From: a virus
DNA length: 32,069 nucleotides
IMG/VR virus record: IMGVR_UViG_3300045988_166554
Location: 1 to 32,069 of that record
Direction: 5' to 3' (one strand)
Each line of letters starts with the position of its first letter. Positions within the stretch are counted from its first letter, which is position 1. Positions 4,643-30,414 of this stretch are shown in pieces. The notes under the pieces were generated by a model. That model was not told where the DNA came from. It saw nothing but the letters and a program-made list of their open reading frames with translations, and made no database searches. A program made the position numbers and the translations under genes.

Positions 4643-4996
4643 ATGTTTAAAATAGAAAACAAAACTATAAAAATTAATAGAGGAGATATTGGGACAATAA
4701 CACTTACAATACCAGATCATATATTTCAAAAAGGCGATGTGATAACTTTAGGCGTTTATACAAAAAAAGGACTTCAAAAGGAATCTAAATTGCTTAAAAA
4801 TGTTGTAGTAGAAGAAGCAACGACATCAGTTGATATTTCACTAACAAAGGAAGATACAACAATTGATGAAATACAAAATAAGCCTATTACTTATTGGTAT
4901 GAAATACAATTAAATCACGAACAAACAGTTGTAGGATATGATGATGAAAGTACAGCAGACTTCATTCTTTATCCTGAAGGAAGTGATATCAAATGA
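4643..4996 (+). CDS. hypothetical protein (tail fibre region)
   Basis: Strong RBS GGAGGAAAAAATT-ATG. 117 aa. Confidence 0.5.
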   Translation: MFKIENKTIKINRGDIGTITLTIPDHIFQKGDVITLGVYTKKGLQKESKLLKNVVVEEATTSVDISLTKEDTTIDEIQNKPITYWYEIQLNHEQTVVGYDDESTADFILYPEGSDIK

Positions 4997-5766
4997 TAGA
5001 AGCAAAAAAAACATTAGTAGGTCAAATATCTTCTAATCAAAATTTACGTGGAGAACTTTTACCAAGAGGTCCTAAAGGAGATAAGGGCGAAAAGGGCGAT
5101 AAAGGAGATAAAGGAGATACTGGAGCAAAAGGTGCAGATGGTAAAGATGGTGCAATACAATATGAAGCAGGAGAAAACATCACAATAGAAGGTAATGTAA
5201 TTAGTGCAACAGGTGGTGGAGGAGGAGAAAATATTGCTTACACAATAGATGTTCAAGGAACAGAGAGTAATCCTACAATTATAGACAGAACTAAATTAAA
5301 AATAGGCGATTACATTTTAGTAAATGTAGAGAATACAAGATTTAAATTCACTGATACTACAAGTGGTACAGCGTTCTTATATAATGGTTTATACCAAATT
5401 TCAAATATGCCAAATAATCCTTCTACTGATAACCCCTGCATATTACAACTATTACCCAATTATTTTAGTAATTTGGGTGGTGTTTATTTTAGCACTTTAT
5501 TAATATACAATTATGTATCTATATCAACAAAGGAATATAACTTAAATACCAATGGGCAAAAATATGTTGACACGAGTTCTTTTCAATATATTTATGGATG
5601 GAAAAAGTTTGGAAGTACGATTGATGTTCCAACACCATCATCTGATAATAATGCAACCAACAAAAAATATGTAGATGCTTTGCCAACTACATATTCAGGG
5701 TATGACGCTACCAAAACTCAAGTATTAAAAAATATAAACGGAACCTTAACATGGGTTGATGAATAA
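4993..5766 (+). CDS. collagen-like (Gly-X-Y repeat) tail fibre protein
   Basis: Nine consecutive G-X-Y triplets: GPKGDKGEKGDKGDKGDTGAKGADGKDG. The Gly-rich linker GGGGGE follows. Confidence 0.6.
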   Translation: MIEAKKTLVGQISSNQNLRGELLPRGPKGDKGEKGDKGDKGDTGAKGADGKDGAIQYEAGENITIEGNVISATGGGGGENIAYTIDVQGTESNPTIIDRTKLKIGDYILVNVENTRFKFTDTTSGTAFLYNGLYQISNMPNNPSTDNPCILQLLPNYFSNLGGVYFSTLLIYNYVSISTKEYNLNTNGQKYVDTSSFQYIYGWKKFGSTIDVPTPSSDNNATNKKYVDALPTTYSGYDATKTQVLKNINGTLTWVDE

Positions 5767-6062: not shown

Positions 6063-6413
6063 ATGTTAGATTTTAATTTAATAAAAAACATATTAATAGT
6101 AGCAATAGGTAGTTCAATAATTACTACTGCAGTTGTACAAAAAATAAAAGAAAGTCTAAATAGCAAAAAGTATTTATGGTTAATTTCTTTAGGAGTATCA
6201 ATGGCAATAGGCACTCTTTTTGCCATATGTTTTAGTGATTTATCAATAGTTAATTCTTTATGGGTAGGTCTAATAAGTTGGATAGGAGCAGATGCAATTT
6301 ATAAATCATTTGAAGATAAAATATTTAAACCTTTTTCAAAAATGCAAGAAGTAGTCGAAATTCCTAAAGACCAAATAAAAACATTGGAGGAATTGGAAAA
6401 TGAAGTATTGTAA
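6063..6413 (+). CDS. holin
   Basis: 116 aa with 2-3 TM helices (LIVAIGSSIITTAVV; LWLISLGVSMAIGTLFAICF; LWVGLISWIGADAIY) and a charged C-terminus. Lies immediately upstream of, and overlapping, the endolysin gene. Confidence 0.7.
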   Translation: MLDFNLIKNILIVAIGSSIITTAVVQKIKESLNSKKYLWLISLGVSMAIGTLFAICFSDLSIVNSLWVGLISWIGADAIYKSFEDKIFKPFSKMQEVVEIPKDQIKTLEELENEVL

Positions 6414-7359
6414 AATGCCTCTTAAATTTAATGGAATTACTGAAGCATATATGAGTACTGAAAGTCCTTACTATTCAAAATCTAACCCTCATAAAGGAGT
6501 GGATTTAGGATGGAATGAATATCAAGGAGAACCTGTATATGCTATTAATGATGGAGTTGTTATGTTCGTTGACAAAACGACAGGAAGTAATAATGCAGGA
6601 AATTATATATGGATTAAACATGAGTTTACTGACTATGCTTTATGGAGTAGATATTGTCATTTAAAGGATAATTCTACACTTGTAAAAGTAGGACAAAAAG
6701 TTACTAGAGGTCAACAAATTGCTTCTATGGGTGGAACATACGGATATGCTACACATTTACATTATGAAATGTGGAAAACACCAAAAAATTGGAAATTTAA
6801 CTGGAATGACAGAATGAAGTATTTGGTAAACCCACTTAATTTTACTTTTGCTTTTGAAGACCAATCAATTGGAACTGGTGAATTAAGCAAAGTAATTACA
6901 AGAGTTTTGGGTACTTCAAAACAAGCAAAAAGAGATACTTCTAAAAACCAAATTGAAGTTGTAGGAGAGTATTTAAGAATTCGCAAAGGTGCTGGAACTA
7001 ATCAAACTATACTTGGTTATATTGACTATGGTATTTATGATTATACTGAAACAAAAAATGCGAATAATTATACTTGGTACAATTTAGGTTTTGGTTGGAT
7101 TGCAGGAACGAAAGAAGATACTAAGATTTACCCAAAAGAAGAACAAACAGATGATAAAGACAAAAAAATAGCAGAATTAGAAGAACAAGTTAAAAAACTT
7201 GACACCGAATTATTGGCACAAAAAACGTTCGTAGAGAAACAAAAGGAAGAAATAGAACAATTAAACGAAAAACTATCAAATTACGCAAATTTAAAAGAAC
7301 ATAAAGTAGATAAGACAGAATATATAACATTAATAAACGGAGACAGAATATATTTTTAG
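6400..7359 (+). CDS. endolysin: M23 (LytM-type) metallopeptidase, SH3b-like cell-wall-binding region and C-terminal coiled coil
   Basis: M23 motifs HKGVDLG .. and .. YATHLHYEMW are present. An SH3-like segment (YLRIRKGAGTNQTILGYIDYG..YTWYNLGFGWIAG) follows. The C-terminus has heptad repeats (ELEEQVKKLDTELLAQK). Confidence 0.8.
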   Translation: MKYCKMPLKFNGITEAYMSTESPYYSKSNPHKGVDLGWNEYQGEPVYAINDGVVMFVDKTTGSNNAGNYIWIKHEFTDYALWSRYCHLKDNSTLVKVGQKVTRGQQIASMGGTYGYATHLHYEMWKTPKNWKFNWNDRMKYLVNPLNFTFAFEDQSIGTGELSKVITRVLGTSKQAKRDTSKNQIEVVGEYLRIRKGAGTNQTILGYIDYGIYDYTETKNANNYTWYNLGFGWIAGTKEDTKIYPKEEQTDDKDKKIAELEEQVKKLDTELLAQKTFVEKQKEEIEQLNEKLSNYANLKEHKVDKTEYITLINGDRIYF

Positions 7360-8379: not shown

Positions 8380-9534
8380 CTAGTAATATTTATCAGTAGT
8401 TTCTGCTATCTCCTTTCTTATTTTTGTTGATAAATGACCATAGTGATTCACTGTGGTTGAATAATTAGAATGGCCTAATCGCTCACTTATGTGGTATAAT
8501 TCTTTACCTTCTTCCATCATTGTCGCAACATAAGTATGTCGCAAATCATACATTCTTATTTTTTCAACATTTGCTCTATCACAAAAATAATAGAACGATT
8601 TTCTTAAACTAACATCTGATATAGGCTTATTTGTTGTTCTATTTAAGAATATTAACTCATTATCGTTTACTTCATATCCTAATTCGTGAATTAAGAAGTA
8701 TTTATAGCTATTAATTTCATTTATCAATTTATCCGTAATATCTATTACTCTTTGTGATTGATATGTTTTTGTATGTGATATAAAGTCTTGTGAATTTTTG
8801 TTATAATTTATAGAATGTAATATTGAAACACTTTTTGTTTCTTTGTTAAACATATCAAAGGTCAATGCTCTTGTTTCCCCAATTCTATCTCCTAGTGTAA
8901 ATCCTATTAATGTAAGTATTTTTGTTCTGTAAGCAGTCTCTTTATAAATATTGTTTTCTATACAATTATTTATTTCATCTAAAAATTTTTTTAAATCATT
9001 GGTTGTCCAAAATTTCATTTTTGGTTTTTCTGTTTTATATTTTGTAATACCTATCATAGGAGAATAATATATATATTCCTCTTTAATACACCAATTGAAA
9101 AAAGTTTTTAGTTCTTTTAATATTTGATTTTTTTGTTTTAAAGAACAATTTTGATTTTCAATAAAGGTTATAAAATATTGTTTGTTTAATTTTGTTAATT
9201 TTACATTTATTTTATTTTTTAAATATTTATTATATGTTCTTTCTTTTCTTAATAGCGTGTTATATTCCAATTTTGCCTCGTATTTGCACCAAGTAATATA
9301 TTTGCACCACATGCTATCAAAATCTTCCTTATTAAGTGTTTCTGTTGCTTTTGCATGTCTAATTTTAGGATTATCTCTAATTTTTAATGCTTCTTCTAAT
9401 TTCATTATCTTTTTACCTTCTACAGAAGCTATAGAAGTTTTAACTGGTTTGCTTAACATGATAATATAATTTTTATTTTTGATATTTCTATATATATTTT
9501 GGTATCTTGTTTTTTCATATTTTTTTAAATCCAT
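8380..9534 (-). CDS. int: tyrosine integrase (site-specific recombinase, phage integrase family)
   Basis: 384 aa. C-terminal catalytic region ..MYDLRHTYVATMMEEG..LGHSNYSTTVNHYGHL.. carries the R..H..Y tyrosine-recombinase signature and the conserved LGH motif. Confidence 0.85.
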   Translation of the reverse strand: MDLKKYEKTRYQNIYRNIKNKNYIIMLSKPVKTSIASVEGKKIMKLEEALKIRDNPKIRHAKATETLNKEDFDSMWCKYITWCKYEAKLEYNTLLRKERTYNKYLKNKINVKLTKLNKQYFITFIENQNCSLKQKNQILKELKTFFNWCIKEEYIYYSPMIGITKYKTEKPKMKFWTTNDLKKFLDEINNCIENNIYKETAYRTKILTLIGFTLGDRIGETRALTFDMFNKETKSVSILHSINYNKNSQDFISHTKTYQSQRVIDITDKLINEINSYKYFLIHELGYEVNDNELIFLNRTTNKPISDVSLRKSFYYFCDRANVEKIRMYDLRHTYVATMMEEGKELYHISERLGHSNYSTTVNHYGHLSTKIRKEIAETTDKYY

Positions 9535-20938: not shown

Positions 20939-21343
20939 ATGTTAACCATAAAACAAGAAAAATTTGTACAAAATATTGTTAAAGGTATGAGTCAAAGAGA
21001 AGCTTATAAAAGTTCTTATAATGCTAAAAACATGAAAGATGATACTATAGATAACAAGGCATGTAATTTGTTTAAACAGGACAAGATAAGGGCAAGATAT
21101 GAAGAACTATTAAAGAGGATTGAAGATAAAGCAATCATGACAGCAGAAGAGAGACAAATATGGTTATCTAAAGTTGTTAAAGGAGATATAAAAATAACTA
21201 GAGAGTATGATGATGAAATAAAAGAATATGAGCCATATATGAGTGATAGATTAAAAGCAATGGATATTCTTAATAAAATGACAGGCCAGTATGTAGAAAA
21301 GGTTATGAATATACAACCACCAAATATTGAAGATGATGTTTAA
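20939..21343 (+). CDS. terS: terminase small subunit
   Basis: N-terminus MLTIKQEKFVQNIVKGMSQREAYKSSY matches the Terminase_2 (P27-family) signature LT.KQ..F. RBS GGAGGTG. Confidence 0.8.
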   Translation: MLTIKQEKFVQNIVKGMSQREAYKSSYNAKNMKDDTIDNKACNLFKQDKIRARYEELLKRIEDKAIMTAEERQIWLSKVVKGDIKITREYDDEIKEYEPYMSDRLKAMDILNKMTGQYVEKVMNIQPPNIEDDV

Positions 21344-22608
21344 TGAATATTAAAATTAGTGAAATAATAGCACCTAATTTTTATGAATTACATAGAGATT
21401 TAAAAAGTGAAAAAAATACTCATTATTGGTTGAAAGGTGGCCGTATCTCCACTAAGTCTTCGTTTATAAGTATTGAAATAATACTTGGGATAATGAAAGA
21501 TAAAAATGCTAATGCAGTAGCAATGAGAAAAGTTGGAGATACACTTGCTGATTCTGTTTATGCTCAATTAATATGGGCTATCGATAAATTGGGTGTTGGT
21601 TATTGCTGGGAAATGAAAGTGAGTCCTTTAAAATTAGTTTATAAGTTAACGGGACAAGAAATATTATTTCGTAGTGCTAATAATAAAGAGGACTATAAAA
21701 AAATAAAATCAATAAAAATAAAAAAAGGTTATTGTAAATATATATGGTATGAAGAGGTTGATGAATTCTTTGGTATGGAAGAAATAAGAAGCATTAATCA
21801 GTCGTTAATGCGAGGTGGGAATGTATTTAAAGTGTTTTATTCGTTTAATCCCCCCAAAAGTGTTAATAATTGGGTAAATGCAGAAATAATCATTCCTAAG
21901 CCAAAGACAATAGTACATCATAGCACATACTTAACAGTACCAAGAGAATGGTTAGGAGAGCCTGCTTTATTAGAAGCAGAACACTTGAAAAAAACAAATG
22001 AACTAGCATACAGAAATGAGTATTTAGGAGAGGCAACAGGTACAGGTGGAGCAGTATTTACAAATATAATTTTAGAAAAAATTACAAATGATGATATTGA
22101 GCATTTTGATAATATATTAGATGGTAACGATTTTGGTTATGCGGTAGACCCAAATTGTTATTTACAAATTCATTATGATAAGACACGCAGATGTCTTTTT
22201 ATTTTTAATGAAATATATAAAGTCGGTTTAAGTAATAGACAATTGTATGAAGAAATAAAAAAAGTAAAAATAGGAAACAGCTATATTACTTGTGATAGCG
22301 CCGAGCCAAAATCAATTGATGAATTAAAAAGTCTTGGTTTAAGAGTAAGAGGGGCGAAAAAAGGACCAGATAGTATTGAATATGGGATAAAATTTTTACA
22401 AAAACTAGAATTTATAAAAATAGATCCTGATAGATGTCCTAATACAGCCAAAGAATTTAAAATGTACGAATATGAAAAAGATAAAATGGGAAATTTTAAA
22501 AGCAAATATCCCGATAGCAATAACCATAGTATTGATGCAGCAAGATATGCGGTTGAAGATTATACAATTTCAAATACATGGCAAGTATCAAATAGAAAAT
22601 TAATGTAA
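21343..22608 (+). CDS. terL: terminase large subunit (PBSX/Terminase_3-like)
   Basis: 421 aa. N-terminal ATPase has a deviant P-loop LKGGRISTKS. The C-terminal RNaseH-like nuclease region has conserved acidic residues (..YLGEATG.., ..CDSAEPKSI.., ..HSIDAARYA..). Confidence 0.8.
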   Translation: MNIKISEIIAPNFYELHRDLKSEKNTHYWLKGGRISTKSSFISIEIILGIMKDKNANAVAMRKVGDTLADSVYAQLIWAIDKLGVGYCWEMKVSPLKLVYKLTGQEILFRSANNKEDYKKIKSIKIKKGYCKYIWYEEVDEFFGMEEIRSINQSLMRGGNVFKVFYSFNPPKSVNNWVNAEIIIPKPKTIVHHSTYLTVPREWLGEPALLEAEHLKKTNELAYRNEYLGEATGTGGAVFTNIILEKITNDDIEHFDNILDGNDFGYAVDPNCYLQIHYDKTRRCLFIFNEIYKVGLSNRQLYEEIKKVKIGNSYITCDSAEPKSIDELKSLGLRVRGAKKGPDSIEYGIKFLQKLEFIKIDPDRCPNTAKEFKMYEYEKDKMGNFKSKYPDSNNHSIDAARYAVEDYTISNTWQVSNRKLM

Positions 22609-22621
22609 AAGGAGTGATAAC

Positions 22622-24139
22622 ATGTTACAAATAGCAAATTTAGAAGAATTACATGCAAATGATATACCAAAATTATTAGAAAAAGTAAGGCCTGTATTAA
22701 AAAAAAGAAAGGAATTACATGATAAATATACTAGAAAAGCAGATGCATCAACAGTTATGTTTTCTGACACAAATTCAAATACAGTTATTCCGTTCGAAAA
22801 ATTCATAACTGATTTGGCAACTGGATATTTGAGTGGAACGCCAATTTATAGTGTTACTGATACAACGGATGAAGATAAGAAAAGATTATTAGAATTATTA
22901 TTGGATAAAAAACAACCGGATGCTGATTATAAAAAAGGTATGGAAATAATTATTAATTATGTTACTGGGTATAATGATGATTCAACAGAAAATTATGATT
23001 TATTTCATGATATTTTAGAAATGACAAGTTGTTATGAAATATTATATGAAAACGAAAATAATGAAATAGTGTATTCAAGATATGATCCGTTACAAACAGT
23101 AGCATGTTGGGATTATAATACACCTGTTAATTTGATAGGCTTAATAAGGACCTGGGATGAAGAAAATTTAAATGGTACTATAATAACTAAATTTGAATTG
23201 ACAGATAAATATGGTACTAGAACATATGATATTAGAGGTAATGAAGTTATAGAAAGTGATAATCAAAATCACAATTGGGGAGATGTACCTGCTATAGCTG
23301 TTGAAACAGACTTTGCCATATTTGAGACATGTGAAGATATTGTTCAATCATATGAACAATTAATTCAAAATGTACGAAATACTTATCAATATAATGATAG
23401 CGATTGTAAATTAAAAATAACAGGGTATACTCCTGAACATCCAATGGTAGTGCCAGATGAAAATGGTGAACCTAAAATTAATCCAGCAAGAATAAAAGAG
23501 GATGAGGCATGGGTCAAGAGTTTGACTATTTATGTCGCAGAAGGTGGGGATGTTTCTTGGTTAGTAAAACAATTGGATGCTAACGGAGTAACAACAATAC
23601 TAAAGGCATATATAGATTTAATGTTTCAAATTGCAGGAATACCGAATACAAGTGATTTAGCATTTAATTCAACCGATTTAAATGCAAGCGCAATTGATAG
23701 AAAATTTTATGTTATGAATATGGCGACAGCTTGCGTTGTTTCTCAATTGAAAAAAGCATATTTGAGAAGATGGGAATTAATTTTTGGAAGAATAAATTTA
23801 AAAAAAGACACTAATTTTGATTTTAGAGACATAGAAATAGATTTACCTAAGAACTTACCTGCGAATGATGATGAAAAAATTGATAGTATGTTGAAACTTC
23901 AAAATGTTTTATCACTACAAACAATTATTGAAAAATTAGGATATAATTACCTCGATGAAAAGAATAAAAAGGATGCTGAAGCAGAAGATAATATGCTAAA
24001 TAACCTTGAACGTATGAAAATGCTAAGCGGTATTGATGATACAACAATAAAAGAGCAGGAAGGAACAGATAAAATCAAAGTTGATAAATCAAATGATGAA
24101 TTAAAAGAAGAATCAGATGAAGAAAAAATAAAAAAGTAG
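22622..24139 (+). CDS. portal protein (SPP1 gp6-like)
   Basis: 505 aa. Lies directly after terL. Acidic C-terminus. Confidence 0.7.
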   Translation: MLQIANLEELHANDIPKLLEKVRPVLKKRKELHDKYTRKADASTVMFSDTNSNTVIPFEKFITDLATGYLSGTPIYSVTDTTDEDKKRLLELLLDKKQPDADYKKGMEIIINYVTGYNDDSTENYDLFHDILEMTSCYEILYENENNEIVYSRYDPLQTVACWDYNTPVNLIGLIRTWDEENLNGTIITKFELTDKYGTRTYDIRGNEVIESDNQNHNWGDVPAIAVETDFAIFETCEDIVQSYEQLIQNVRNTYQYNDSDCKLKITGYTPEHPMVVPDENGEPKINPARIKEDEAWVKSLTIYVAEGGDVSWLVKQLDANGVTTILKAYIDLMFQIAGIPNTSDLAFNSTDLNASAIDRKFYVMNMATACVVSQLKKAYLRRWELIFGRINLKKDTNFDFRDIEIDLPKNLPANDDEKIDSMLKLQNVLSLQTIIEKLGYNYLDEKNKKDAEAEDNMLNNLERMKMLSGIDDTTIKEQEGTDKIKVDKSNDELKEESDEEKIKK

Positions 24140-25609
24140 GTGTTTCAAATGAATAATGCAGAAATACTGAGAGAAAGATGGAAAAACACAGATAAATATT
24201 TATTAAAATATCTTAAAAAATATAAAATTATAAATAGAAATACTAGAGATAATATACAAAATGTGTTTAATGAATTAAACATAGATTATAAGGATATAAA
24301 TAAAAATATTTCTAAACAACAAAAAAACAAATTAGACAGATTTATATTAAATCTAAAAAAAAATAAATTGCTTAAAGATTATTTTGGATACAAAGCAAGA
24401 TTAATATTTTCAAAAAAAAGTGTTACGTATTTAGAAATGATGGAAATAATGATAATGGCATGTTATATACAACAAAATGAAGATTTGAAAGAATATAATA
24501 ATCTATTGTTTTATGAAGTATGTAAAGAAAGTTACGAACAAGGAATAAAAGATATAGGAAAGATAAAAAAAATCAAACCTATATCTTTTAAATTGCCAAT
24601 ACTATATACAATACTTAATATTCCAATTTTTAATGCAACGGCTGAAAGTTATTTATATTCTTTGGCTTTAACAAATGCTGAAGAAACATTTAAACAAGTA
24701 TTAATAAATATGCAACTAAATAGAGAATTAAATGTTGATAATAAGTATTTTGAAAATTTGTTTAATAAACAAGATAATAGATTTATAAATATAAACAAAG
24801 ATAAAGCTAGTGGTGGTGTTGCCAATATAGTTGAAAATATAACCAATTTGGCATATTTACAATCCGGAATAGATACTAATACGACAGAATGTAGGTTTAT
24901 TGCTGAAATGGACAAAAGAACAACTAAAATGTGTGAAAGTTTAAATAATCAAGTGTTTAAAATAAATGAAATGAATACATATCAAAGGTATAGTGATGCG
25001 GATAAAAAAATTATAACATACCATACGCAAGGATTAGTAAGAGGCGAAAATTTACCTCCTATCAGTAATCATTTTCATTGGTGTAGAAGTACAATAACAT
25101 ACTTAACAGACATGCAAAGAAATGAACTTGATGAAAAGTTACAAACATTTAATGAAAAATTAGCCATTAGTAAATGGTTAAGTAGCGACTTCTATTACAT
25201 TAACCAAAAAATGTATATAGATCAAAAACTTACAAAGGATGAAAAAAGATTAGTGAAAGATTTATATAGAGGTTTAAACAAAGAACCATATTATATTGCT
25301 AAAAATGATGAATACATAATAAGAACTCTTGAAGTTGATGATAATACTATACAGGATATTATAAATACTCACCCACTTAATAAAATATATAAATCTAAGG
25401 CCTTTGAATCATATTCTTTAAAAAATAATTATAATCCTAAAGGAAATGTGTTTTTTTATGTTAAGGGTAGCCAAAAAGCGAGAAACATGTTAAAATATAA
25501 TCCAATGGAAAGAGAAGCTGAAGTTTTATATCAATATGGAACTAAGTTTATAACCAAAGATTATTATATTAACAATGGAAAACACTATTTCTTATTGGAG
25601 GAATTGTAA
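24140..25609 (+). CDS. minor head protein: MuF/SPP1 gp7-like domain fused to a C-terminal ADP-ribosyltransferase-like (R-S-E type) domain
   Basis: Phage_Mu_F block ..DKRTTKMCESLNNQVFKINEMN..PPISNHFHWCRST... The C-terminal ~130 aa carry R377 (LYRG), S424-Y-S426 and E457-R-E-A-E461, with the spacing of C2/C3-type ADP-ribosyltransferases. The ORF-track start is GTG at 24140; an ATG lies at 24149. Confidence 0.7.
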   Translation: MFQMNNAEILRERWKNTDKYLLKYLKKYKIINRNTRDNIQNVFNELNIDYKDINKNISKQQKNKLDRFILNLKKNKLLKDYFGYKARLIFSKKSVTYLEMMEIMIMACYIQQNEDLKEYNNLLFYEVCKESYEQGIKDIGKIKKIKPISFKLPILYTILNIPIFNATAESYLYSLALTNAEETFKQVLINMQLNRELNVDNKYFENLFNKQDNRFININKDKASGGVANIVENITNLAYLQSGIDTNTTECRFIAEMDKRTTKMCESLNNQVFKINEMNTYQRYSDADKKIITYHTQGLVRGENLPPISNHFHWCRSTITYLTDMQRNELDEKLQTFNEKLAISKWLSSDFYYINQKMYIDQKLTKDEKRLVKDLYRGLNKEPYYIAKNDEYIIRTLEVDDNTIQDIINTHPLNKIYKSKAFESYSLKNNYNPKGNVFFYVKGSQKARNMLKYNPMEREAEVLYQYGTKFITKDYYINNGKHYFLLEEL

Positions 25610-25785
25610 TGGATAAAGAAAAATTGTTTAAAGATCCTCGTTGGACGACATATCAACCAGTACAAGTATTAAATATTGATGTACAGCCGACTGAAGATGA
25701 CAAGAAAAAGGTTGAAGAATTTAGAAGATTTATTGATGAAACAATAGAAAATGAAAAAATGAAAGACACTAAATTAAAAAAATAG
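25609..25785 (+). CDS. small ORF (58 aa), translationally coupled (TAATG) to the MuF/ADP-ribosyltransferase-like gene
   Basis: RBS GGAGGAATTGTA. MDKEKLFKDPRWTTYQPVQVLNIDVQPTEDDKKKVEEFRRFIDETIENEKMKDTKLKK. Below the ORF-track size cutoff. Its stop lies inside the terminator stem. Confidence 0.45.
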   Translation: MDKEKLFKDPRWTTYQPVQVLNIDVQPTEDDKKKVEEFRRFIDETIENEKMKDTKLKK

Positions 25786-25795
25786 TGTCTTTTTT
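25765..25795 (+). terminator. rho-independent terminator
   Basis: GACACTA-aattaaaaaaa-TAGTGTC followed by TTTTTT. Confidence 0.55.
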
Positions 25796-25961
25796 GCTAC
25801 TATTTTATAGGTAGCTTAGAGTAGTTATGGAGTAGTCCTCAAGTAACTATTCTAAGGTGCTAATAAAGCACAAAGTCGATTGAATAAAATCGGCTTTTTT
25901 GGCGTGATTCACCGGAACGAATTATTTGGTTTTATCGACCGAGAAAGATAGGAGGAAGATT

Positions 25962-26555
25962 ATGAAAGATAATCAATATTTAATGCCATTGAACATTCAG
26001 TTGTTTGCTGAAGGAGGAGATGGTAATGTGGTTACTGATGGTACCGAAAATCCAACAGATGGCAATTCAATTGAAAATAAGCAAGAAAAAACTTATACAC
26101 GAGATGAATTAAACAAAATTATTTCAGCTGAAAAGGAAAAAGTAAAAGCAGAATTAATAAAAGATGCCGAAGCGAAGAGAACCGAAGCTGAAAAGTTAGC
26201 AAAGATGGATGCCGAAGAAAAACATAAGTATGAACTAGCAAAAGCTGAAAAAGAAAAAAATGATGCTTTGGCAAAATTAAATGCTTATGAATTAAAGGAA
26301 CAGGCAACCAAAATTGCAAATGAAAAGGAATTGGATATATCCTTACTTGATATCATTGATTATTCAAAAGAAACTGCTGATAGTGTTAAAGAAAAGATTG
26401 AAAGTATAGATAATGCTTTTAAAAAAGCAATCGAAAAGAGAGTCAATGAAAAATTACAAGAAAAAAGTCCAAGAAATGTAACATCTGCTTTATTGAATGC
26501 AGATAGGGAATATTTAAAAAATAAATACAAAAATAATCCTTATTTTAAAGGATAA
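25962..26555 (+). CDS. scaffolding protein
   Basis: The ATG at 25962 has an AGGAGGAAG RBS. N-terminus MKDNQYLMPLNIQLFAEGG, the common scaffold leader. Lys/Glu-rich coiled coil. Precedes the capsid gene. Confidence 0.75.
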   Translation: MKDNQYLMPLNIQLFAEGGDGNVVTDGTENPTDGNSIENKQEKTYTRDELNKIISAEKEKVKAELIKDAEAKRTEAEKLAKMDAEEKHKYELAKAEKEKNDALAKLNAYELKEQATKIANEKELDISLLDIIDYSKETADSVKEKIESIDNAFKKAIEKRVNEKLQEKSPRNVTSALLNADREYLKNKYKNNPYFKG

Positions 26556-26576: not shown

Positions 26577-27434
26577 ATGGCAGTATTATATGGAAGCCAA
26601 CACGTAGATGAAAAGTATTCATCAACAATTGAACCAAATTTATATTCAGACACAGTCTTAATACCAGGAGTAACTTATACAGATAAGTATCAAGTAGGTC
26701 CTGCAGGGGGCATTTATGTTCATAAAATCAAGAAAGGAAATAAAGTAACAGTAGGAACACCAGGCAGAGATTTTACTGATGAAGCTGCAGCAGATGACTT
26801 AATACCTATTATTTTTAATAATAATTTCCAAAAATCAAGAAAAATTTATGGGGTACAAGCTAAAGCGGTTTCATTTGCAATGGGAGAAGAGTATTTAACT
26901 GATAGTTTAAATCAAACTAAAGAAGCACGCCAATATTCAGGAATTGCTTGTATGGTTAATGAAGGTACAGTTTCAACAGATACAGCAGCAACTACAAAAG
27001 CTAATCTTGTTGATAAATTAACAGCATTAAGAAAGGCAATAAAAGATGCAAAAGGTAAAGCAAATTTTGCATTAGTTTCGACTGATATTTATGCTATGGC
27101 ATTATCTACATTAGGATTACAATCAGTTCAAGATCCTGCTATTGTAAGTGGAGAACTTATCAAAAGATTTGGATTAAACATTATTGAATGTAATTCATTT
27201 GATGAAGAAACAGCAAAATATTATGATAAAACAGGCACACTTAAAACAGTTGATTTAACAGATGTTGAAATGATTGTAGGTTATCATGAAGCATTCTCAT
27301 TATTAGATAATATGGAAATGTATAGATTAATTGATAGTGAAAACTTTAATGGATCTAAAGCACAAGTTGAATATAACTCTGGTATGACAGTAAATAGTCC
27401 AGAACAAATAATTGTAAAAAAAAAAGTAGCGTAA
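26577..27434 (+). CDS. major capsid protein
   Basis: 285 aa. Lies directly after the scaffold gene. Ends in ..IIVKKKVA, encoded through a 9-10 nt A-run. Confidence 0.7.
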   Translation: MAVLYGSQHVDEKYSSTIEPNLYSDTVLIPGVTYTDKYQVGPAGGIYVHKIKKGNKVTVGTPGRDFTDEAAADDLIPIIFNNNFQKSRKIYGVQAKAVSFAMGEEYLTDSLNQTKEARQYSGIACMVNEGTVSTDTAATTKANLVDKLTALRKAIKDAKGKANFALVSTDIYAMALSTLGLQSVQDPAIVSGELIKRFGLNIIECNSFDEETAKYYDKTGTLKTVDLTDVEMIVGYHEAFSLLDNMEMYRLIDSENFNGSKAQVEYNSGMTVNSPEQIIVKKKVA

Positions 27435-27661
27435 GCTACGTTGTATCTTATGATGTAAATGGTGGCACAGGCTCTATTGCTCCAGTTACTTATACAGGAA
27501 CACCAATAGACCTACCTGATGGAACAGGCTTAACTGGCCCTGAAGGGAAAACAGTATTTAAAGGATGGGCTAAAACATCCACTGCACAAAGTGCTACAGT
27601 AACAAGCCCATTTACACCAACTGCAGATACTACATTATACGCTGTTTGGTCAGCAGAATAA
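27416..27661 (+). CDS. -1-frame C-terminal extension of the major capsid gene (no start codon) encoding a Listeria-Bacteroides-repeat (Flg_new / InlB B-repeat-like) domain; probable programmed frameshift product
   Basis: Hand translation of the -1 frame from the A-run to the TAA at 27659-27661: ..KKKSSVSYVVSYDVNGGTGSIAPVTYTGTPIDLPDGTGLTGPEGKTVFKGWAKTSTAQSATVTSPFTPTADTTLYAVWSAE. It matches the consensus Y.V.FD.NGG.......G......P...G..F.GW.......TLYA.W. Exact coordinates are ±1 because of the homopolymer. Confidence 0.55.
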   Translation, partial: KKKSSVSYVVSYDVNGGTGSIAPVTYTGTPIDLPDGTGLTGPEGKTVFKGWAKTSTAQSATVTSPFTPTADTTLYAVWSAE

Positions 27662-27678: not shown

Positions 27679-28008
27679 ATGGAAAAACTAATCGATGACT
27701 TATTGGAAGAAATAATTGATGATTTAGCAGATAACTATCGTAATGATGAAGATGTTTTATTATCACTGTTGGATGATGTCATAAATGATGCTCTTTCAAT
27801 GTCCAACAGAAAATTTAAACCAGATAAAGAAACACAAATATTATTGTTAAAAAGTAATATAAAAAAAGCTACAAAATCAATTTATTTATTAAGGGGAACA
27901 GAAGATGTTGTTTCTAGTAGTAATAGTGGAACTTCTAATACTTATGAAAATGTTATGGAAACTATGCTTAATGACATTCTTAAACAAGGTAAAAGGATAT
28001 TAATATGA
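27679..28008 (+). CDS. head-tail connector / adaptor protein (gp6 / SPP1 gp15-like)
   Basis: Acidic N-terminus LIDDLLEEIIDDLADNYRNDEDVLLSLLDDVINDA, typical of this family. First gene after the capsid gene. Confidence 0.65.
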   Translation: MEKLIDDLLEEIIDDLADNYRNDEDVLLSLLDDVINDALSMSNRKFKPDKETQILLLKSNIKKATKSIYLLRGTEDVVSSSNSGTSNTYENVMETMLNDILKQGKRILI

Positions 28009-29230: not shown

Positions 29231-29668
29231 ATGGAAGAAACTTTAGAATATTCTACTTTTAATGGAACAAAACTTGAGTATGCAGAAACAGAAAATGGAG
29301 AAAAAACACAAATAAAAGGACTTACAACTGTTCCTGATATCGGGGGAGAACCAAATGAAGTTGATACTACAACTCTTGATAATACAAAATATGAAACTTC
29401 TAAATATGGTTTAATGCCAGCAGTAAAATTGGCATATGAATACAATTTGGAAGATCCAAGCGCAACCGCTAATATAAAATTAGCGAGTGATTTAGAAGAC
29501 TCTGGAAAAACTTATTACTGGTGGTTAACATTTCCAAATGGAATTATTATTTCATATAGAAGTGCAGTAAGAACAGATATTAAGGGTGGTTCTAGTGGAG
29601 ATTTATTAAAATTTGGAATGTATCATAATCCTGTAAGTGAAATTACAAGGACAATTCCAACAACTTAA
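29231..29668 (+). CDS. major tail protein
   Basis: 145 aa. Strong RBS GGAGGGAGAAAAATT. Lies upstream of the chaperone pair and tape-measure gene. Confidence 0.65.
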   Translation: MEETLEYSTFNGTKLEYAETENGEKTQIKGLTTVPDIGGEPNEVDTTTLDNTKYETSKYGLMPAVKLAYEYNLEDPSATANIKLASDLEDSGKTYYWWLTFPNGIIISYRSAVRTDIKGGSSGDLLKFGMYHNPVSEITRTIPTT

Positions 29669-29755: not shown

Positions 29756-30139
29756 ATGAATTATTATATTATTACACTTAATGGAGAAGATATTAAGTTA
29801 AGATTAACCAGTGCTGATTCTGTTGAAATAGAAAAGAAAACTGGTGTAAAATTATTAGATTTTATACAAGATTATAGTATAACTACTATAACAACATTAC
29901 TTAAATATATGAGAAGAAGTGATGTGCCTAATTTTAGCGAAAAAGATGCTTTTGTGTTATATGATAGACTAATTGACAATGGATATACGCTTGAAGATAT
30001 TATTTTTAAAGTAATTTATGAAACTTGTGTTGTTTCAGGTTTTTTGAAGAAAAGCGACTTGGAGGACATGGAAAATTTCAAGAAGGAAAGCCAAGCAACG
30101 CTAATGGAAAAGAAAAAACAAGAAATATTACAGAAATAG
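29756..30139 (+). CDS. tail assembly chaperone (gpG-like)
   Basis: RBS AAGGAGAAT. Overlapped near its 3' end by the -1-frame ORF 30025..30414. Confidence 0.7.
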   Translation: MNYYIITLNGEDIKLRLTSADSVEIEKKTGVKLLDFIQDYSITTITTLLKYMRRSDVPNFSEKDAFVLYDRLIDNGYTLEDIIFKVIYETCVVSGFLKKSDLEDMENFKKESQATLMEKKKQEILQK

Positions 30140-30414
30140 TGAATGAGTTATATGATGAATTGTTGAAATTTGATTTAACTTATGAACAGATGTACAAAAT
30201 GACAATTAGAGAATTGTTAAAAACGTTGGAACAAAGAAAAAAAGGACTGGCTTATAAAATGTGGAAAACGGCCAATTTAACAGGAGCTTCAATTGCTGGA
30301 AAAGAATTTCCATCAACTCCCGAAGAAGCATCACCAGAATTATATCCACCTAAAGTCAGTATAAAAATGCCAGACTTTTTAAAAGAAAAATGGTTAAAGA
30401 AGGGAGGTAAATAA
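30025..30414 (+). CDS. tail assembly chaperone frameshift extension (gpGT-like T domain), made by a -1 frameshift from 29756..30139
   Basis: The -1-frame ORF has no proper start (TTG in the ORF track). The slippery heptamer T_TTT_TTG lies at 30040-30046 in the overlap. The ORF ends one nt into the tape-measure ATG (TAATG). Confidence 0.7.
   Translation: MCCFRFFEEKRLGGHGKFQEGKPSNANGKEKTRNITEIVNELYDELLKFDLTYEQMYKMTIRELLKTLEQRKKGLAYKMWKTANLTGASIAGKEFPSTPEEASPELYPPKVSIKMPDFLKEKWLKKGGK

Follow-up and report, generated by a model that had tools for sequence, protein, structure and literature searches.

Extension of a capsid or tail protein by frameshifting is a textbook trick of phages, and it has been described with Ig-like domains and fixed heptamer sites. 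The closest described systems are those of T7 and T3 (10A/10B), Lactobacillus phage A2 (gp5A/5B) and the Listeria phages A118 and A500 (-1 shifts) and PSA (a +1 shift), in which the minor, long form of the capsid protein carries a C-terminal, start-less surface domain from another frame and the change of frame takes place at the extreme 3' end of the capsid gene. The same anatomy is found in the DNA analysed here, a stretch of 32,069 nucleotides (nt) from the virus record IMGVR_UViG_3300045988_166554 of IMG/VR (positions 1 to 32,069), hereafter called the window. Its major capsid gene ends in a run of ten A (A10), and the -1 frame behind the run holds a start-less open reading frame (ORF) for a small domain. 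Unlike in T7/T3, A2 and the Listeria phages, this domain is of the Flg_new / InlB B-repeat type and not Ig-like, and the products are predicted from the genes. Furthermore, in place of a heptamer with a stimulator the junction is a 10-nt homopolymer, which is polymorphic in length and has in-frame alleles on the same haplotypes.

The second group of comparable systems is provided by tssM1 of Citrobacter rodentium (A11) and tssM of Yersinia, where a poly-A run likewise encodes Lys-Lys-Lys shortly before a premature stop (PMC4256274). Extra A's in the tssM1 mRNA restore the frame and add a C-terminal domain, as is proposed for the window; mRNAs made from the A11 run have 10-15 A, the restored frame accounts for about 20% of the protein, and neither length variant is dispensable (PMC4256274). 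The present case differs in being a phage structural gene with an A10 run in a host of low guanine-plus-cytosine (GC) content, where slippage is predicted, and tssM1 restores the other frame (reported as +1). RNA polymerase of E. coli is known to slip on runs of at least 7 T, and A runs must be longer still (PMC6260861).

Phase-variable simple-sequence contingency loci of bacteria share further features with the junction, namely a coding homopolymer whose length varies among near-identical genomes and which toggles a surface-exposed module. Hypermutable poly-G tracts in Campylobacter phages are presumably comparable contingency loci; they differ from the present tract, which is poly-A and whose target is a capsid decoration, not a receptor-binding protein. 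Unlike at such loci, the OFF allele here still yields a complete, functional capsid protein. The Flg_new domain itself may be compared with Ig-like decorations (Hoc, the C-terminus of lambda gpV, Big_2/I-set/FN3 domains). Both are small, promiscuous, beta-rich and presumably weak adhesins, and both occur as C-terminal parts of unrelated capsid and tail-tube proteins and in stand-alone decoration proteins, although Flg_new belongs to a different fold family.

Anatomy of the capsid junction

The capsid gene of the window closes with GTA AAA AAA AAA GTA GCG TAA. The preliminary description, made from the letters of the DNA, had read this end as ..IIVKKKVA* behind a run of 9-10 A and had proposed a slippery X_XXY_YYZ site at the run. 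Both statements agree with the computed sequence: the run is exactly 10 A long, consisting of the last base of a Val codon and three AAA Lys codons, and the heptamer A_AAA_AAA is present in the correct phase twice, at 27416-27422 and 27419-27425 (zero-frame codons from 27417). Directly after a TAG at 27395-27397, the -1 frame opens at 27398 and meets its first stop, a TAA, at 27659-27661. Computed translation of these 87 codons contains neither an in-frame stop nor an in-frame ATG, GTG or TTG, just as the same description had stated. Owing to this lack of a start codon, the extension can be expressed only as a capsid fusion, and an independent start of the extension in the window was ruled out. 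The predicted fusion has 361 amino acids (aa) with the junction ..VKKK-SSVSY.., and it would be the same protein by either a ribosomal or a transcriptional route. Predicted sizes are about 31 kDa for the short and about 39 kDa for the long form, and the junction tryptic peptide of the fusion is SSVSYVVSYDVNGGTGSIAPVTYTGTPIDLPDGTGLTGPEGK.

A start-less domain ORF directly behind a homopolymer had also been thought unlikely to arise by chance. A stretch of 88 open codons has a probability of about 1.4e-4 at the given base composition. Runs of the A10 type are expected about 2.8 times in a window with 41% A, so that A10 alone is not statistically surprising. The run at the capsid end is the longest homopolymer of the window. 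The second longest, an A9 at 24355-24363, lies inside the gene of the 489-aa minor head protein.

The product of the gene ahead of the junction is an HK97-fold major capsid protein, as judged from its match to phrog_267, its gene position and the fold matches of a weak model. The top PDB matches of the capsid homologue model are all HK97-fold capsids, the model itself being weak (predicted local distance difference test score, pLDDT, of 57 for the full-length fusion). PDB sequences were also searched with a profile of the capsid family, and no match was obtained. The identity of the gene also follows from its neighbours, since a scaffold gene precedes it and a head-tail connector gene follows it. 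The connector starts 18 nt past the stop of the extension; thus, the extension exactly occupies the gap between capsid and connector genes.

Family, fold and conservation of the extension

The peptide encoded by 27425-27658 matches Pfam Flg_new (PF09479) over the full model (positions 1-65/65; E value 1.5e-8; 35.1 bits against a cut-off of 27), which bears out its first assignment to the Flg_new / Listeria-Bacteroides repeat family. The extension model has a pLDDT of 94, this being the only confident one of five models. It superposes on the InlB B-repeats 2y5p and 7pv9 and on the Treponema denticola sialidase domain 10qf with template modelling (TM) scores of 0.65-0.71 and a probability of 1.0, and the extension profile also finds 2y5p by sequence (E 2e-3). 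The modelled fold of the extension is accordingly of the InlB B-repeat type. The label Ig-like, attached to the domain at first reading, was rejected: all fold matches with a probability of 0.9 or more are B-repeat-containing proteins, and the Pfam search of the extension gave no Big_2, I-set or FN3 match. The domain probably serves adhesion to glycans or surfaces, by analogy with the Ig-like decorations of phages. No other Flg_new domain was found among eight proteins scanned, six of which are window ORFs.

Conservation of the extension was assessed between the window and locus L038, which represent two clades that are both A10 as far as read. Synonymous divergence (dS) is 0.58 and non-synonymous divergence (dN) is 0.068, giving a dN/dS of 0.12. 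The capsid body has a similar ratio (0.05-0.09, compared with 0.06-0.12 in the extension). Moreover, the extension ORF is undamaged, with neither stops nor indels, in the 22 A10 loci read and in the window. From its intactness in all these loci and its dN/dS of 0.12, the extension is judged to be translated and under purifying selection; that it is a genuine coding part of the capsid protein is borne out by near-identical phages with A11, in which exactly the predicted 361-aa fusion is an in-frame gene. These data bear directly on whether the window holds a decaying remnant, in which a frameshift mutation inactivated a former fusion and the downstream ORF is being lost. Domain-less relatives show that loss does happen; the strong purifying selection, the undamaged extension in A10 loci and the recurrent switches between A10 and A11 described below nevertheless make decay barely credible.

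Natural polymorphism of the A tract

An exact-sequence look-up found both the 285-aa protein of the window (P0121) and the exact 361-aa fusion (P0122) in public assemblies, within the same 90% cluster. The DNA of eight cluster members was fetched and the junctions were tabulated. The sole difference between the DNA of P0121 and that of P0122 is A10 versus A11. The tract states that were read are given in Table 1; the samples come from separate projects (SRR, ERR, DRR, ERZ) and assemblers, among them DRR741344, SRR16279949, ERR14040160 and SRR31239960 with A10, and SRR16961869, SRR36440738, SRR29703491 and ERR11478474 with A11. Phages nearly identical to that of the window have A9, A10 or A11, while A12 and GTT plus A10 belong to more distant ones. 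Exact-pattern scans for the junctions in JGI metagenome contigs (two scans) and in IMG/VR (one scan) returned nothing, and the census therefore rests on Logan and ENA assemblies.

Table 1. States of the A tract at the capsid junction in the window and in related loci
Junction	Frame of the domain	Loci	Proteins (contigs)
GT-A10-GTAGCG	-1, out of frame	window, L013-19, L023-28, L038-41	P0121 (24 contigs read), P0123 (16), P0125 (8)
GT-A11-GTAGCG	in frame	L020-22, L029-32	P0122 (3, one in two samples), P0126 (10)
GT-A9-GTAGCG	+1; capsid ends KKK*	L045	P0133 (3)
GT-A12-TAGT	in frame	L001, L033-37	P0001 (1), P0127 (5)
GTT-A10-GTAGCG	in frame	L002	P0002 (1)

The commonest state in the lineage of the window is the out-of-frame A10. 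Tracts of A9, A10 and A11 occur on backgrounds that differ by 0-2 nt in about 1.2 kilobases (kb). When a neighbour-joining tree was built from 1171 aligned nt with the tract removed, A10 and A11 loci were interspersed, each A11 locus being 0-1 differences away from an A10 neighbour. Alignments of 3.2 kb tie three A11 loci to different relatives: L020 clusters with the window and L014 (both A10), L021 carries an alternative upstream mosaic module common to L013 and L015 (both A10), and L022 has single-nucleotide polymorphisms common to L016 (A10). The links of L020, L021 and L022 to different A10 haplotypes or mosaic backgrounds imply that the length has changed independently at least three times, with a resolution that is limited by the low diversity of the clade.

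The same dimorphism is met in a second lineage with about 64% capsid identity. Locus L042 of this lineage reads ATT-A9-CTAGCAGCGTAA, its capsid ends in KKKLAA* and its domain is in the -1 frame; with the A10 tracts of L043 and L044 the domain is in frame. At the protein level, P0180 equals P0179 up to the Lys tract, with 8 short versus 5 long contigs. A low proportion of short forms is present in the clusters of P0013 and P0055 too. Either alternative frame of the in-frame alleles closes 1-3 codons past the run (TAG giving KKKK*; TAA giving KKKVA*, KKKIV* or KKKLAA*), so slippage in these alleles would yield a capsid of canonical length. At out-of-frame loci, gene callers annotate a short capsid gene and, separately from it, an orphan Flg_new ORF of 56-74 aa (P0124, P0192, P0193, P0195, P0233), and this splitting conceals the fusion in catalogues. 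The orphan ORFs begin at an internal GTG or ATG, and those of 68-74 aa, which come from other lineages, are without the first strand of the domain.

Since homopolymers attract errors and A11 alleles of identical protein sequence are known, one A might have been dropped from a true A11 fusion gene by sequencing or assembly. This is very improbable, given that the exact 285-aa product is on 24 contigs from different projects and assemblers, spanning Logan, ENA and JGI, and that the second lineage is dimorphic in the same way. Additionally, 361 aa is the length of each of the 14 near-full-length members listed for the P0002 cluster, and L002, the one member whose DNA was read, is in frame through GTT plus A10. 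The occurrence of the tract states in many assemblies, together with the second lineage, indicates that A9, A10 and A11 are real alleles and not random homopolymer sequencing noise. As a further control, from protein lengths only, a length of 361 aa is shared by all 15 proteins listed in the P0012 cluster, whose junction is KKKQ.

Capsid relatives with and without the domain

The hypothetical 361-aa fusion was searched against 5.8 billion proteins, and about 1100 relatives were obtained. The majority have 284-288 aa and end in KKHA*, KKKSA*, KKVTA* or, in one case, KKKVA*, with the connector gene directly behind the capsid stop where DNA was read. As most relatives end alike, the KKKVA* end in the window represents the normal C-terminus of the capsid family. 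The minority are in-frame capsid-Flg_new fusions of 360-363 aa with 63-92% identity, whose existence shows that constitutive fusions are viable. Their junctions read KKK-N/S/T/Q/A, KKV-SSS, KKH-GNY or KKR-TAN, and the KKV, KKH and KKR junctions imply no long A run. The Lys-rich C-terminus is kept even in the domain-less relatives; hence, the tract was probably exapted.

Searches of other collections were less productive. A near-identity DNA search of the GenBank phage collection found nothing, and a protein search of that collection found just one capsid match, at 33%. Single-protein scans of IMG/VR and of GTDB genomes, including a scan with P0012, returned solely domain-less relatives.

A few relatives (P0088, P0185; L006, L134-L137) carry other C-terminal tails at the same Lys-Lys junction, including a helical segment of 50 aa (..TKAELIEYAKTQGIEV..) and Pro/Thr-rich tails. 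A Pfam search of P0088 and P0185 found nothing. Owing to the diversity of tails attached there, the Lys-Lys junction looks like a hot spot for module exchange.

The polymorphism and the domain-less relatives may be taken together as signs of a purely genetic ON/OFF switch, in which A10 is OFF without meaningful recoding and the ORF is kept by frequent reversion to A11. Such a switch would be in line with the A9, A10 and A11 tracts on near-identical backgrounds and their independent changes, with the lack of the domain in most relatives, and with the presence of both states on long contigs that are probably prophages. Yet OFF would then be the majority state, while the ORF is intact in every A10 locus read and has a dN/dS of 0.12 between two A10 clades. 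Moreover, ten A are long enough to make some slippage during expression hard to avoid (PMC4256274, PMC6260861). A switch of this purely genetic kind is accordingly considered unlikely.

Recoding signals and proposed mechanism

The preliminary description had explained the junction by programmed -1 ribosomal frameshifting that adds the domain to the capsid protein, and had suggested that homologous phages be compared for the A run. In its classical form, known from T7/T3 gene 10 and A2, a fixed fraction of ribosomes would slip on A_AAA_AAA, aided by the near stop and the hairpin. The start-less ORF, the two in-phase heptamers and the natural A11 fusion uphold the part of this claim that concerns the added domain. 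For a ribosomal route also speak the stop two codons on, a 5-bp GNRA hairpin that abuts the run, and the out-of-frame alleles of two diverged lineages, both of which are -1. In addition, a tail protein of an unrelated phage (L126, see below) is followed, behind an in-phase T_TTT_TTT, by a -1-frame domain of this type, and -1 capsid extensions are known in T3, A2, A118 and A500 (PMC5009743).

No convincing stimulator of a ribosomal shift was found. A typical stimulatory structure lies 5-9 nt downstream, and the hairpin, starting 0-3 nt past the heptamers, is too near to them; the z-score of the hairpin (-0.9 to -1.0) is not significant and it is not kept in register in other lineages. An unrelated hairpin of 6-7 bp lies 8 nt downstream in L042 (z -2.2), and folding z-scores across about five distinct lineages revealed no conserved frameshift-stimulating RNA structure and no shared register. 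There is no Shine-Dalgarno (SD)-like motif upstream of A10. Among the homologues, the out-of-frame state recurs in at least two lineages, but it is not fixed: A9, A10 and A11 are all found, in-frame A11 alleles recur, and other relatives are in frame or domain-less, so that the conserved out-of-frame arrangement of a fixed programmed frameshift is missing. Polymerase slippage would also be expected to contribute on an A run of 10 nt. Classical ribosomal frameshifting as the explanation of the locus is considered quite unlikely.

The sequence features expected for transcriptional slippage are all present: A10 reaches the threshold of about 9 A (PMC6260861, PMC4256274), the insertion of one nt restores the long frame, and the natural A11 alleles encode exactly the 361-aa fusion. 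By analogy with described cases, polymerase slippage on A10 is at least as likely as ribosomal frameshifting. The explanation preferred here, to which about an even chance is given, is that the Lys-Lys-Lys tract is a slippage-prone junction, where the length of the genomic run sets the default product and slippage during expression, mainly transcriptional, gives a minority form. With A10, ordinary decoding would end two codons past the run and yield the 285-aa capsid. One extra A in the mRNA through RNA-polymerase slippage, or a -1 slip of the ribosome on A_AAA_AAA, would instead give the 361-aa fusion. The transcriptional route would be expected to dominate on a run of such length and would need no extra signal. 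A heritable change of length would alter the default, A11 making the fusion and A9 or A10 the short form. Like a dial, the run would thereby set what fraction of the subunits is decorated, both through the genome and through expression.

The features typical of a contingency locus are found as well, namely frame-changing tract variants among near-identical genomes and recurrent switching. Tentatively, and with a probability that is on the low side, the run might be a true phage contingency locus, that is, a heritable, reversible, high-frequency switch layered on the slippage during expression. Gut prophages would use it for bet-hedging between bare and decorated capsids, and the same device would operate in several capsid lineages. 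Uses of such bet-hedging would include, for instance, tuned adhesion to mucus or glycans, and evasion of immune or defence recognition.

Several points weigh against the slippage-prone junction as explained above. The slippage during expression is something we infer for a low-GC host. The listed near-full-length members of the P0002 cluster are uniformly 361 aa long, and with GTT plus A10 in L002, the member read as DNA, A10 runs may not be intrinsically very unstable. Contig counts do not represent independent events, as the clade is nearly clonal. Since the domain is dispensable in the capsid family and absent from most relatives, A10 could be a plain OFF allele. The Lys-rich C-terminus in all relatives accounts for the tract, and selection for slippage need not be invoked. 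Finally, the purifying selection could date from ancestors in the in-frame state and not from recoding in A10 genomes.

The locus departs from the described capsid extensions in its long homopolymer junction, which many independent samples show in an in-frame or an out-of-frame state. A natural experiment on the level of capsid decoration is thus already contained in public data. If slippage or switching is true, the junction would be a simple dial, open to engineering, by which partial display on the capsids of phages of low-GC gut bacteria could be set.

Flg_new domains in other phages

Phage Ig-like domains occur in frame or out of frame (PMC5009743), and Flg_new appears to parallel them as a promiscuous C-terminal module found in either arrangement. 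The subtype seen here proves to be mobile and widespread as a decoration of virions among phages of gut and rumen type; a literature search brought up no report of Flg_new in this role. Scanning IMG/VR with the extension alignment gave 107 relatives, of which the best 80 (L046-L125) were examined. The same Flg_new subtype (L046-L125; P0196-P0232), at 55-72% identity, forms the in-frame C-terminus of unrelated capsid proteins (L048, 369 aa; L054, 356 aa; L052 and L053, about 500 aa; L097, 486 aa) and of tail-tube-like proteins (L046, 277 aa; L050, 308 aa). Small stand-alone proteins of 144-155 aa with the domain lie behind capsid genes in L056, L062 and L082.

An out-of-frame example is given by L126 (IMGVR_UViG_3300031853_000203, about 1470-1731), where a tail-tube-like ORF of 187 aa ends in ..ESFFQS* and Flg_new (P0203) is in the -1 frame. 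An in-phase T_TTT_TTT stands ahead of the domain, with a stop two codons later, and the homologue of this tail-tube-like protein in L046 is an in-frame fusion. L126 looks like a more classical frameshift site. A protein search in which the extension was the sole query gave, in addition, a family of proteins of 120-137 aa, in which a repeated N-terminal IMEALGG-type motif is followed by the domain. Across the stand-alone Flg_new proteins of 120-155 aa, which follow capsid genes, the repeated N-terminal segment is of the IMEALGG type or of a GELKK type.

Genome context

The window is a nearly complete, low-GC (27.7%) genome of a temperate siphophage according to its ORF list, Pfam and PHROGs, and is taken to be a gut prophage. 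The order of terminase, portal, minor head, scaffold, capsid and connector genes was assigned by Pfam and PHROGs (Table 2). Hints on the host come from related contigs, which carry the labels Bacillota, Bacilli, uncultured Mycoplasma and Ruminococcus metagenome-assembled genomes.

Table 2. Features of the window, with positions counted from its first letter
Feature	Position	Strand	Evidence
Integrase	8380-9534	-	
Large terminase	21343-22608		
Portal	22622-24139		
Minor head protein, 489 aa	24140-25609		
Head scaffolding protein	25926-26555	+	Pfam DUF4355, E 3e-18; phrog_172, E 1e-39
Major capsid protein, zero frame, 285 aa, ..IIVKKKVA*, stop TAA 27432-27434	26577-27434	+	phrog_267, E 1e-11
A10 homopolymer, proposed slippage site	27416-27425	+	sequence
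Extension ORF, -1 frame, 78 codons and TAA 27659-27661	27425-27661	+	translation; PF09479
Hairpin GUAGC-GUAA-GCUAC, candidate modulator, includes zero-frame stop	27426-27439	+	centroid structure, -7.1 kcal/mol
Head-tail connector	27679-28008	+	Pfam Phage_connect_1; phrog_132
Tail-tube gene	29231-29668		

Between the minor head and scaffold genes (about 25609-25925), otherwise near-identical phages have one of two unrelated modules, with an ORF of either 58 or 65 aa, which points to recent mosaic recombination just upstream of the capsid module. Loci L013, L015 and L021 differ in this respect from L014, L016, L017, L020 and L022, and the ends of the preceding gene differ as well.

After the tail-tube gene, the ORFs 29756-30139 and 30025-30414 overlap, the second being in the -1 frame, and an in-phase T_TTT_TTG is located at 30040-30046. 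A PHROGs search gave no match for either ORF; the pair is probably the usual G/GT frameshift of tail assembly chaperones. Elsewhere, the tail/lysis region contains an ORF of 257 aa (4993-5766) with a collagen-like triple-helix repeat slightly under the Pfam cut-off, and an ORF of 319 aa (6400-7359) with a Peptidase_M23 domain.

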